Positions 48,924-50,953 of a stretch of DNA of 64,000 nucleotides are shown in pieces. Both the position numbers and the translations under genes were made by a program. This DNA is from an uncultured Bacteroidales bacterium (GTDB taxonomy: Bacteria > Bacteroidota > Bacteroidia > Bacteroidales > JAAYJT01), in NCBI GenBank assembly GCA_964349765.1, contig CAYGGZ010000005.1:15918-79917 (forward strand). The letters run 5' to 3'. Every line of letters begins with the position of its first letter. Within the stretch, counting starts at the first letter, position 1. The notes beneath the pieces were generated by a model. It was not told the DNA's origin. It ran no database searches and saw only the letters and a list, made by a program, of their open reading frames with translations.

Positions 48924-50585
48924 ATGACAATAGCCGAATTAAAACAAATCCTCCAGTCTCTCCGCAATCTCACTGCGGAGAATGAAATAGTAGAGTATAA
49001 AGAGGCAAAAAATGGTTATGATTTCAACAAGCTGGGCAAATATTTTTCAGCCTTAAGCAATGAAGCCAACCTAAAAGGCAAGCCTTATGCCTGGCTGGTG
49101 TTTGGGGTGGAGAATAACAAGCATAAAATTGTGGGAAGTCAATATCGTTTACAGAGAAAAGATTTAGACAGTCTGAAAAGTGAAATAGCCAGTAAAACCA
49201 CCAACCGAATTACGTTTATTGAAATTTATGAACTGAACGAGCCTGAAGGTAGGGTAGTGATGTTTCAGATACCAGCCGCACCTAAGGGATTTCCAATTGC
49301 TTTTGATGGCCATTACTATGGCCGGGACGACGAAGAATTGTCGCCTCTAAACCTTGAAGAAATTGAACGCATACGAGCACAGACTACTACCGAAGACTGG
49401 AGTGCCGAAGTTGCTCCCGATGCCACTATTGAAGATTTGGACGAAGAAGCCATTGCTTTGGCCAGGAAGAATTTCAAAAACAAATTCCCTGAAAAAGCCG
49501 CAGAAGTTGATCAATGGGATGATAAAAGCTTTTTGAACAAAGCCAAAATTACCATCAAGGGAAAAATTACTCGAACAGCTATTATTCTGTTAGGCAAAGA
49601 GGAATCGGAGCATTTTATTAATCCTGCTGAAGCAAAAATAAGATGGTTGTTGAAGGATGCACATGGCAACGATAAAGACTACGCCATTTTCGGTTGCCCG
49701 ATGATATTGGCAGTTGATAAAGTGTATGCAAAAATTCGCAACCTGAAATATCGTTACATCAAAGAAGGAACTCTTTTTCCTGATGAAGTAAATCAATACG
49801 AACCCTATTCCATAAGAGAAGCCCTAAATAACTGCATTGCACACCAGGATTACACCAAGCATGGTCGAATCAATGTAGTAGAAATGGACGACCAGTTGAT
49901 TTTCACGAATCTAGGTGCTTTTATTCCGGGAAGTGTTGAAAAGGTTGTAAAAGACGATGCCCCCGAGGAACATTATCGCAACCGTTTTTTAGCCACAGCC
50001 ATGTTCAACCTTAAAATGGTGGATACGGCCGGAGGTGGTATAAAGAAGATTTTCAATTTTCAGCGGGAGCGTTTCTTCCCAATGCCCGACTATGACCTTT
50101 CGGGCGGAAAAGTAAAAGTGACTATTTCAGGTAAAATACTCGACATTGAATATGCACGGTTATTGGCTCGTAATAGAGATCTGACTTTAGAAGAAATCAT
50201 CATGTTGGATAAGGTTCAGAAAAAGCAGCCACTAACAGAGTTTGAGGAAAAGCACTTAAGGAGCAAAAAGCTGATTGAAGGAAGAAAACCAAACTATTAT
50301 ATCGGAATAAAGGTTGTGTCAAAAACAGGTCAGAAAGCGACATATTCTAAAAACAAGGCTTTTGAAAAGAGCTACTATATGGATTTAATAGAGAAATCAA
50401 TTAAAGAACATAAGAGTTTAGAAAGAAGTGATGTAGATGAATTACTCTGGAAAAAGCTACCGGATTGGATGGATGAGAAACAAAAGAAAAATAAGATAGG
50501 GAATTTACTGTCGGAGTTGAGAATGAAGGATAGGATTGAAAACACAGGAAGCTATAGCAAGCCAAAGTGGTCTCTTAAAAAGTGA
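48924..50585 (+). CDS. AlbA_2 (Schlafen-like, 'divergent AAA') + HATPase_c_4 + C-terminal wHTH-like protein (RecG-like putative regulator)
   Basis: N-terminus ENEIVEYKEAKNGYDFNKLGKYFSALSNEANLKGKPYAWLVFGVEN (AlbA_2). Middle REALNNCIAHQDYTKHGRINVVEMDDQLIFTNLGAF (HATPase_c_4-like). 553 aa. Confidence 0.75.
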   Translation: MTIAELKQILQSLRNLTAENEIVEYKEAKNGYDFNKLGKYFSALSNEANLKGKPYAWLVFGVENNKHKIVGSQYRLQRKDLDSLKSEIASKTTNRITFIEIYELNEPEGRVVMFQIPAAPKGFPIAFDGHYYGRDDEELSPLNLEEIERIRAQTTTEDWSAEVAPDATIEDLDEEAIALARKNFKNKFPEKAAEVDQWDDKSFLNKAKITIKGKITRTAIILLGKEESEHFINPAEAKIRWLLKDAHGNDKDYAIFGCPMILAVDKVYAKIRNLKYRYIKEGTLFPDEVNQYEPYSIREALNNCIAHQDYTKHGRINVVEMDDQLIFTNLGAFIPGSVEKVVKDDAPEEHYRNRFLATAMFNLKMVDTAGGGIKKIFNFQRERFFPMPDYDLSGGKVKVTISGKILDIEYARLLARNRDLTLEEIIMLDKVQKKQPLTEFEEKHLRSKKLIEGRKPNYYIGIKVVSKTGQKATYSKNKAFEKSYYMDLIEKSIKEHKSLERSDVDELLWKKLPDWMDEKQKKNKIGNLLSELRMKDRIENTGSYSKPKWSLKK

Positions 50586-50640
50586 ATTTGGAAAGTTTAA
50601 GAGAGAATTAAGAGATAATCTAAGAGAGAAATTGTAGAAG
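50584..50640. repeat. purine-rich low-complexity arm (GAGAGAATTAAGAGA type) after the AlbA_2 gene
   Basis: gaatttggaaagtttaagagagaattaagagataatctaagagagaaattg. It shares gagaattaaga with the cassette 2 left arm (54264-54274). gaatttggaaagtt is an approximate inverse of the attgaattctccaaatc iterons. Confidence 0.55.
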
Positions 50641-50783
50641 ATTAAATAGTGAACCTGAAATTATTATTGAATGCCATGGTTTTAGAAAAGAAGATAAGTT
50701 CTATTTAAGCCGGAGTTATCGAAAAACATATTAGAAAAGCTATTAGAAGAGATGAACAAGAAGCCAATTCCATAAGAAAACTA

Positions 50784-50953
50784 AAATTCTCCAAAAGATG
50801 ACAATTATCTATGTAAGTAACAACAGATTGAATTCTCCAAATCAAGCATTGAGTTCTCCAAATCGAAACAGGAAATCTATTTTAATCGCTGATATACAAT
50901 ATGTTACGTATTTATTGAAATTCTCCAAAAACAGTATTGAATTCTCCAAAGGC
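50784..50953 (+). repeat. five direct copies of a (A)TTGA(A/G)TTCTCCAAA motif upstream of hsdR
   Basis: aaaattctccaaaag (50784), attgaattctccaaatc (50827), attgagttctccaaatc (50848), attgaaattctccaaaaac (50914), attgaattctccaaagg (50937). The pairs are spaced 21 and 23 bp apart. Confidence 0.85.

Follow-up and report, generated by a model that had tools for sequence, protein, structure and literature searches.

The question that this locus raises is what a 433-bp segment rich in direct repeats is doing in front of the gene of a type I restriction subunit. We analysed a stretch of 64,000 nucleotides from an uncultured Bacteroidales bacterium (contig CAYGGZ010000005.1, hereafter the window), in which a type I restriction-modification (R-M) island occupies 42.8-55.4 kb with housekeeping genes around it; the segment extends from the stop codon of an AlbA_2/HATPase_c_4 gene (50585) to the ATG of hsdR (51019). 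A previous examination of the same letters, made without database searches (the sequence-only reading), had described the segment as free of open reading frames (ORFs), had listed five direct repeats in it, and had hesitated between a decayed third cassette of the four-helix-bundle (4HB) type and a set of operator or iteron sites controlling hsdR. The comparison of related loci indicates that the repeats form an array kept at fixed distances from the hsdR start codon, and we regard it, with a confidence that stops a little short of even, as a series of operator-like sites in the hsdR leader that would gate hsdR expression. The parts of the array (positions relative to the hsdR ATG are negative) and the gene that it precedes are:

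50785-50795, + strand: single half-site at -232, AAATTCTCCAA, the surviving half of the distal pair
50831-50862, + strand: pair at -186/-165, half-sites 21 bp apart, in the same register as in the related loci L029 and L225
50919-50950, + strand: pair at -98/-77, half-sites 21 bp apart
50975-51006, + strand: proximal pair at -42/-21, AATTCTCTGTA ... GGTTCTCTAAA, the most widely conserved pair over all array classes
51019-54246, + strand: hsdR, type I restriction subunit of 1075 aa (Pfam), the gene preceded by the array

The five copies listed at first are all present (50782-50795, 50828-50841, 50849-50862, 50916-50929 and 50937-50950), and two further diverged copies, AATTCTCTGTA at 50975 and GGTTCTCTAAA at 50996, bring the total to seven half-sites of the form rATTCTCYRWA, all in the same (+) orientation and spanning 50785-51006. 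The word RTTCTCYAAA occurs six times in the window, always on the + strand and always within 50786-51006, against 0.89 occurrences expected, and none of 100 shuffles reached six; no reverse-oriented array was found anywhere in the 64 kb. A repeat finder resolves the repeat unit as a pair of half-sites exactly 21 bp apart, giving three pairs and one single half-site; the pairs are direct repeats of an 11-bp motif, not palindromes, and are separated from each other by 56-88 bp. The pairing recognised in the sequence-only reading is real, but the range of 21-23 bp given for it reduces to exactly 21 bp in all three pairs, and the placement at 65-235 bp upstream of hsdR was too narrow, the last half-site lying 21 nt 5' of the ATG. 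An eighth half-site, at -253, is broken in the window by a 2-nt deletion, visible as caat--tccataag in the alignment with relatives. Public metagenome assemblies hold the same contig with an identical gap. A scan of the gap for sigma-70-type promoters and terminators gave one weak minus-strand match, fewer than in shuffles.

Relatives of this hsdR were gathered from 80 genomes belonging to many Bacteroidota orders, at 80-93% protein identity, the genome loci being taken with flanks of 4 kb. Their upstream regions sort into several classes, and the array stands upstream of hsdR in 27 of the 80 loci, as well as in four further loci that were reached through another protein and carry a second type (t2) of AlbA_2/HATPase_c_4 gene. 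Measured from the hsdR ATG, half-sites start at -21, -42, -77, -98, -165, -186, -232 and -253, always on the sense strand, a register that is identical in the window, L029 and L225. The consensus is rATTCTCYRWA, with a nearly invariant A at the ninth position of TTCTCYRWA, and the 21-bp spacing is found in 56 of the 125 successive half-site intervals of the array loci. In an alignment of the window with L029, identity is 87% in the half-site columns but 57% in the spacers (Fisher p = 1.3e-6), and among the array loci the spacers keep their lengths, free of indels, although their sequence is saturated by substitutions. In 783 kb of related loci the pair pattern was encountered only within 460 nt 5' of hsdR, the one real exception being L046, whose array has been displaced by a Fic cassette that entered between it and hsdR. 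A scan of metagenome contigs for four half-sites returned at least 120 matches, nearly all of them simple repeats; the true hits among the matches listed were L148 and L206, both upstream of hsdR. In viral contigs the pair pattern gave 20 matches, all of low complexity or unrelated, none with hsdR. Comparison of the same region in related loci, proposed as a check when the repeats were first noticed, finds these iterons conserved in about 30 Bacteroidota loci at a fixed register. Because the register is fixed, the half-sites are conserved over the spacers and the pattern is confined to the region upstream of hsdR, the array is, on this comparative evidence, a constrained cis-element tied to the hsdR start and not a decaying relic.

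The array does not fill the whole gap, and what lies to its left belongs to the gene upstream:

48924-50585, + strand: gene of an AlbA_2/HATPase_c_4 protein of 553 aa, type 1 (t1), assigned by Pfam; not the subtype that accompanies the array
50586-50751, + strand: 3' flank module of the t1 gene, a purine tandem plus the conserved block attagaaaagctattagaagag, formerly taken for a cassette's left arm

The left side consists of three copies of an 11-nt purine tandem, TTAAGAGAGAA, at 50597-50630 (Tandem Repeats Finder). Every t1 gene has a purine tandem with a period of 11-12 nt after its stop codon (13 loci), and in six loci (L055, L058, L059, L069, L070 and L077) such a tandem stands behind the t1 gene without an array; the reverse case also exists, arrays following other genes without any purine tandem before them. 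Homology at the nucleotide level between t1 and t2 loci does not set in until about 20-28 nt ahead of the t2 stop, where an ATGAAnAAG start codon stands; a remnant of a t2 gene was considered for the left part and rejected on that limit and for want of any protein-level match. Because the purine tandem and the array occur independently, and the t1/t2 homology starts at the t2 stop, the gap is, as far as alignments can tell, made of two unrelated modules, a t1-gene flank (50586-50751) and an hsdR leader (50752-51018).

The leader itself is not devoid of reading frames, contrary to its first description as an ORF-free segment: a frame open from 50756 runs to a TAA at 51017-51019, with an ATG at 50798 that would give 73 aa.

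50752-50776, + strand: start of the relay ORF in its ancestral form (ATGAACAAG...), together with the eroded eighth half-site, placed by alignment; homology with t2 loci begins at this ATG
50756-51019, + strand: stop-free frame of 87 codons, ATG at 50798 (73 aa), its TAA stop overlapping the hsdR ATG, read as a relay or leader ORF

The overlap has the form TAATG (51017-51021), and the public annotation of the same contig calls the leader ORF a gene. In most array loci 240 nt pass without a stop in one frame, against 6-11 stops in the other two, and when half-sites are held fixed and spacers shuffled, an equally long open frame arises with p = 0.0005-0.05 per locus (16 loci). The frame is open, yet its amino acids seem free to vary: the synonymous fraction is 0.29 in the open frame against 0.20-0.25 in the other frames and 0.91 in hsdR, no period-3 codon pattern was found in the variability of the leader ORF, and the motif is translated in all three frames, as ILQ, NSP or FSK. 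A search of 5.8 billion proteins returned no homologue of the 73-aa product at E <= 0.01, its only match being itself. In t2 loci, the start codon of the frame, an ATG, overlaps the stop of t2 (ATGAATAG), and the frame ends at the hsdR ATG or at most 12 nt from it. In the window, the corresponding ATG at 50752 gives MNKKPIP and then a stop, owing to the 2-nt deletion, and the next ATG, at 50798, lies 212 nt after the AlbA_2 stop, leaving the frame, unlike that of t2 loci, without start coupling to the upstream AlbA_2 stop. The simplest reading is that the leader frame would be a translated relay without amino-acid constraint, holding ribosomes on the mRNA and coupling initiation on hsdR to translation of the gene upstream.

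If the array is a set of binding sites, the most obvious candidate binder is the t2 protein. Relatives of t2, sampled at 76% identity or more, combine AlbA_2 and HATPase_c_4 in about 561-592 aa and are 26-28% identical to the t1 protein of the window, over residues 1-432 only. The array directly follows the t2 gene in 16 of 16 t2 loci (12 genome loci, the truncated contig L043, and three contexts represented by L223, L225 and L226), and in some of them the t2 frame reads into the first pair. Two forms of the protein go with two forms of the repeat: a t2a C-terminus was never seen with half-sites other than YTGTA (8 loci), nor a t2b C-terminus with half-sites other than CCRWA (7 loci), the two forms being 85-100% identical over residues 161-480 and 45-65% over the last ~90 residues, which make up the last winged-helix unit. 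In an AlphaFold model of t2 the C-terminal 160 residues (predicted local distance difference test, pLDDT, 64-90) show a helix-helix-helix-strand-strand pattern twice; Foldseek found weak resemblance to regulators of the ArsR/SmtB and MarR types and to proteins with tandem winged helices, and a sequence search of the PDB found only 3LMM, an uncharacterised member of the family. All this fits a t2 protein predicted to recognise the array through its last winged-helix unit. Other proteins of the island were tried and set aside. KilA-N was rejected as the binder on locus L024, which reads hsdM-hsdS-AlbA_2-array-hsdR with no KilA-N gene between, and the 4HB protein on the finding that its gene adjoins hsdR in only 3 loci. 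The binders suggested in the sequence-only reading, KilA-N and the island's own AlbA_2 protein, are hence a poor fit, KilA-N being absent between hsdM and hsdR in L024 and the t1 form of AlbA_2 occurring with both array variants and with none.

Because the repeats are conserved, stand at fixed distances from the hsdR start and lie inside an open, unconstrained frame, the array most likely controls the amount of restriction enzyme. We propose that the half-sites bind a DNA-binding protein, most likely t2 with its two winged-helix-like C-terminal units, and that this protein, occupying the 250 bp that lead up to the start codon, would hold back read-through into hsdR or initiation on it. With no protein on the array, ribosomes translating the relay frame would stop at the TAATG and start again on hsdR, and the amount of HsdR would therefore be tied to upstream expression. 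In the window, the t2 gene would have been replaced by t1 and the array left orphaned and slightly eroded, one half-site and the original ORF start having been lost through the 2-nt deletion. The sequences show the motif with its spacing, strand, register and conservation, the open frame, the composite make-up of the gap and the association with t2; the identity of the binder, DNA or RNA as its target and the direction of the effect on hsdR are parts of this scheme that we infer. Operator or iteron control of hsdR, as first put forward, agrees with every in-silico test (conservation, register, half-sites over spacers), the regulation itself being a prediction from sequence; and it is plausible that a system so often transferred from host to host should gate its nuclease.

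Several observations weigh against this scheme. The match between t2 subtype and array variant could be plain physical linkage, since the t2 gene and the array are adjacent. The t2 gene is absent from the window although the window array is of the t2b type, so that this array is an orphan. Arrays, often shortened, also persist behind t1 genes (8 loci), behind DUF3800 with a 178-aa gene (5 loci) and behind DUF4917 with DUF2188 (1 locus), and these would therefore have another binder, a role independent of t2, or the status of relic copies; the greatest persistence being that of the proximal pair (-42/-21) hints at a t2-independent role. The structural model of t2 is of low overall quality (mean pLDDT 52). 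The sense strand carries every half-site, in a translated frame, and a role at the RNA level would fit this equally well. No positionally conserved match to the Bacteroidota -7 box (TAnnTTTG) was found in 14 loci. Finally, none of the RNA runs contained the window, and the one metatranscriptome that matched did so in hsdR only, with a leader of a palindrome type described below.

A more specific version of the scheme is possible, but we hold it to be more doubtful than the operator-like role as such: a t2-type protein and four direct-repeat pairs in a relay frame would make up a dedicated hsdR controller in a widely transferred Bacteroidota family of type I R-M systems, a type I counterpart of C-protein control, in which the last winged-helix unit and the array are exchanged together as a specificity module (t2a with YTGTA, t2b with CCRWA). 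In the literature that we searched, we met no account of a comparable array in type I systems.

Among the other explanations, the one that survives best, although we judge it unlikely, places the element in the RNA. The array would then act within the mRNA: an RNA-binding protein might attach to the repeats in the leader and block the relay, or the array might make up one side of a stem with the purine-rich sequence, resembling that of an rRNA intervening sequence (IVS) and processed, for example by RNase III, in a way that uncouples hsdR mRNA from the upstream message. That the half-sites are all on the transcribed strand, in a frame kept translatable, speaks for it, and so does the pairing of the left purine tandem (50587-50622) with the right side (50963-50998): at -24.9 kcal/mol (z = -3.1, 1.3% of shuffles as good) it comes near the -25 to -28 kcal/mol of the arms of the two intact 4HB cassettes of the window, which pair at -27.9 (43325-43765) and -25.3 kcal/mol (54246-54682) with z = -5.6 and -5.9. 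The 4HB elements of rRNA are likewise bounded by a 28-bp stem that is cut by RNase III (PMC4990558). Yet the whole gap folds no better than shuffles (z = +0.9), a consensus fold of 12 arrays has a covariation term of -1.07 with 2 of 40 pairs compensated, and no match to Rfam was obtained at E <= 1. The left-right pairing is not the general mechanism, because t2 loci have full arrays without the purine tandem. The exact 21-bp spacing combined with variable spacers is, moreover, typical of protein-DNA sites.

A little less probable, in our estimate, is that the leader is a relay and nothing else, its open frame carrying ribosomes to hsdR (for coupling and to avoid polarity) and the repeats being stop-free filler derived from heptamer-type junction repeats. 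The frame is indeed stop-free and unconstrained, its stop overlaps the hsdR ATG, and in t2 loci its start overlaps the t2 stop (ATGAATAG). Stop-free heptamer arrays or ATGA mini-ORF chains stand at other junctions of these operons, and the right arm of 4HB cassette 2, (ATTCTCC)x4, gives the same 21-bp pair and is read through into the YgjP-like protein. Filler would not, however, be expected to show 87% identity in the motif against 57% in the spacers, nor to hold the same register in loci so diverged; the motif is read in all three frames, and the spacer lengths stay indel-free despite saturation by substitutions.

It is very improbable that the leader is a real gene for a 73-aa small protein, for example a regulatory or anti-restriction peptide, with the repeats as its coding sequence. 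In its favour, there is an ORF, which gene finders annotate in several assemblies and whose frame is conserved as open; but purifying selection was not detected at the amino-acid level (synonymous fraction 0.29, against 0.91 in hsdR), variation lacks codon periodicity, homologues at E <= 0.01 are missing, the repeat is translated in three frames (ILQ, NSP and FSK), and the ancestral start is lost in the window.

We give no more credence to the other proposal of the sequence-only reading, a decayed third cassette for a 4HB protein of the 23S rRNA IVS kind, or to a scar of cassette arms, in either case now functionless. The intact element with which it must be compared lies on the other side of hsdR:

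54247-54682, + strand: 4HB (PF05635) cassette 2, between hsdR and the YgjP-like gene

Its arms consist of four TTGAGAA-type heptamers on the left (54245-54275) and four ATTCTCC heptamers on the right (54641-54672), the latter translated as an N-terminal extension of the YgjP-like protein and containing two TTCTCCA words 21 bp (3 x 7) apart, at 54642 and 54663. The words that the segment had been said to share with these arms are there: GAGAATTAAGA is common to the segment (50603) and the left arm (54263), and GAATTCTCCA to the segment and the right arm (54639-54648). Length also agrees (about 412-433 nt, against about 437-441 nt in the intact cassettes and 428-444 nt in the Coxiella IVS), and the segment ends show some complementarity. 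However, a relaxed tblastn search with both 4HB proteins of the window against 50560-51040 (480 nt) gave a best E of 0.44, in fragments scattered over several frames, so that residual 4HB similarity was not found; the left and right parts are independent in relatives; the left tandem has a period of 11 nt where real arms have heptamers; and the right part is visibly constrained and locked to the hsdR ATG. Nor does the segment offer a clean empty site of the kind seen at the other end of hsdR, where the overlap TGATGA between hsdR and the YgjP-like gene is intact in about 75 loci and a 4HB gene stands in the window, L058 and L023; 4HB genes adjoin hsdR in only 3 of about 80 loci, always downstream. 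The IVS of Coxiella is 428-444 nt long, with a 28-bp stem cut by RNase III and an S23p/PF05635 ORF (PMC4990558). Both intact cassettes of the window are alike in this respect (about 440 nt, an ORF, terminal inverted repeats of about 28-32 nt), whereas the segment has a similar length and short arm words but no PF05635 remnant, independent ends and an hsdR-locked right half. A distant evolutionary link between arm heptamers and half-sites is possible, but in its present state the segment is no decayed cassette. Least credible of all is an invertible promoter switch or a set of plasmid-type replication iterons, for which one may cite a 14-nt inverted repeat (50602-50615 and 50969-50982, 93% complementary, 353 nt apart) and the earlier description of the repeats as iteron-like, but the island has no recombinase or rep gene, contigs of four metagenome runs (a weak test, being contigs) contain no inversion joints, the window has no reverse-oriented array, and the repeats are dispersed 11-bp pairs, not contiguous repeats of 17-22 bp.

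The cassettes and the other gene junctions of these operons carry repeats of their own. Both 4HB elements of the window are about 440 nt long, have inverted arms of tandem heptamers and lie within an mRNA operon; because their arms keep start/stop overlaps, translation through the operon is preserved. The right arm of cassette 1 is a tandem of eight ATCTCAT units (43705-43760) that ends in the hsdM ATG, and in a public contig that is otherwise identical (L001) the tandem is shorter by exactly one unit; since a simple repeat of variable length stands directly before hsdM, the methylase may be phase-variable. More heptamer tandems are found in the 3' part of hsdM (ATCTCAT x 4.7, 45224-45256) and inside hsdS (ATGAGTT x 4, 47140-47171), both made of the cassette 1 arm unit or its complement. 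At the hsdR-YgjP junction of L045 (6997-7160) there are about ten tandem copies of GTTATGAATTATGA, each unit containing an overlapping ATG and TGA, so that mini-ORFs follow one another in a chain; L059, L068 and L021 have the same arrangement in shorter form.

The loci also differ in what else precedes or interrupts hsdR. In L043 (850-1045) and L226 (7975-8200), the first hsdR codons (ATGGAC...) follow the array, next to them stands a further cassette (extra pairs, or what is left of Fic), and only after it does a second, complete hsdR start appear, which suggests that cassettes were inserted at or beside the hsdR start codon and duplicated the start. An alternative class of leader (L003, L006, L009, L012 and others) has, in the 200 nt before hsdR, three or four palindromes of the form CATGTATAGAAAA-N6-TTTTCTATACATG; it follows Fic-domain or 259-aa genes, has stop codons in every frame, and appears to be the 3' flank of the Fic/259-aa cassettes. 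Upstream of hsdR, the loci L007, L022, L026, L032, L051 and L072 share a conserved non-coding stretch of about 60 nt, ggatgtatcgagcctcgaaactcctttttccaaatggtaaaatgagc, which stands after the 178-aa gene and elsewhere. In L036, L056 and L081 (hsdR match from 4001 to about 8680), an insertion of about 1.4 kb inside hsdR is deduced because the gene spans about 4.7 kb in place of 3.2 kb.

The island of the window is arranged as an hsdS fragment, a 4HB gene (PF05635), hsdM, KilA-N, hsdS, a HAD-type gene, DUF2188, AlbA_2/HATPase_c_4, the gap, hsdR, the second 4HB gene and the YgjP-like gene, and its KilA-N, HAD and DUF2188 genes match the phage-defence candidate families PDC-S22, PDC-S34 and PDC-S16, respectively. 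In L223 (2835-5117) a Piwi-domain gene (prokaryotic Argonaute-like, 760 aa) and a 299-aa partner lie between hsdS and t2, a slot held in other loci by a Ser/Thr kinase or a metallophosphatase. The accessory defence genes between hsdS and hsdR come as modules, each bringing junction repeats that keep translation going along the operon. This arrangement recalls EcoprrI, where the PrrC anticodon nuclease is embedded between hsdS and hsdR: in both cases a variable accessory defence gene stands between hsdS and hsdR of a type I operon. The likeness concerns the neighbouring genes and not the array, and we know of no cis-array described for prrC.

A precedent exists for the overlap at the hsdR start. 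In EcoKI, hsdM and hsdS are translationally coupled by overlapping stop and start codons (PMC3510504). The two cases are alike in that the stop of an upstream frame overlaps the ATG of a downstream hsd gene (TAATG here); they differ in that the upstream frame is here an unconstrained spacer of about 90 codons bridging two genes, not a functional gene, and in that the coupling to AlbA_2 is lost in the window. For the spacing of the half-sites, the closest models are operators with direct repeats 21 bp apart, such as the AraC I1-I2 half-sites and the sites of LytTR regulators (AgrA/ComE), 9-bp repeats with 12-bp spacers. Here too a motif of about 9-11 bp is set head to tail at 21 bp from centre to centre with a variable spacer, but the island has no AraC or LytTR gene, and four pairs extend over 250 bp up to the start codon.

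Control of type I nucleases is generally thought to be post-translational (proteolysis, restriction alleviation) and not to rely on dedicated cis-regulatory sites. The hsdR protein is found at 80-93% identity in Cytophagales, Chitinophagales, Flavobacteriales, Bacteroidales, Saprospiraceae and even a Chlorobium metagenome-assembled genome, which indicates that this type I system has spread horizontally very recently and widely. Because hsdR is so similar over many Bacteroidota orders, the system must repeatedly establish itself in unmethylated hosts. If our proposal is true, an operator-like array and a translational relay before hsdR would be a concrete mechanism for this establishment problem, and would offer a first way into the function of the AlbA_2/HATPase_c_4 (COG2865-type) proteins, which are common in defence islands but uncharacterised. 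The known solution to which it comes closest is that of C proteins and C-boxes in type II R-M systems. The differences are plain: here the system is of type I, the island has no small C protein gene, and its place would be taken by a candidate binder of about 560 aa that combines AlbA_2, HATPase_c_4 and two winged-helix-like units; instead of palindromic C-boxes there are 21-bp direct-repeat pairs (four over 250 bp), which lie in a translated leader. What the two would share is their presumed logic only, repeated sites directly upstream of the restriction gene, an adjoining gene for a helix-turn-helix protein, and a presumed gating or delay of the nuclease in a mobile R-M unit.

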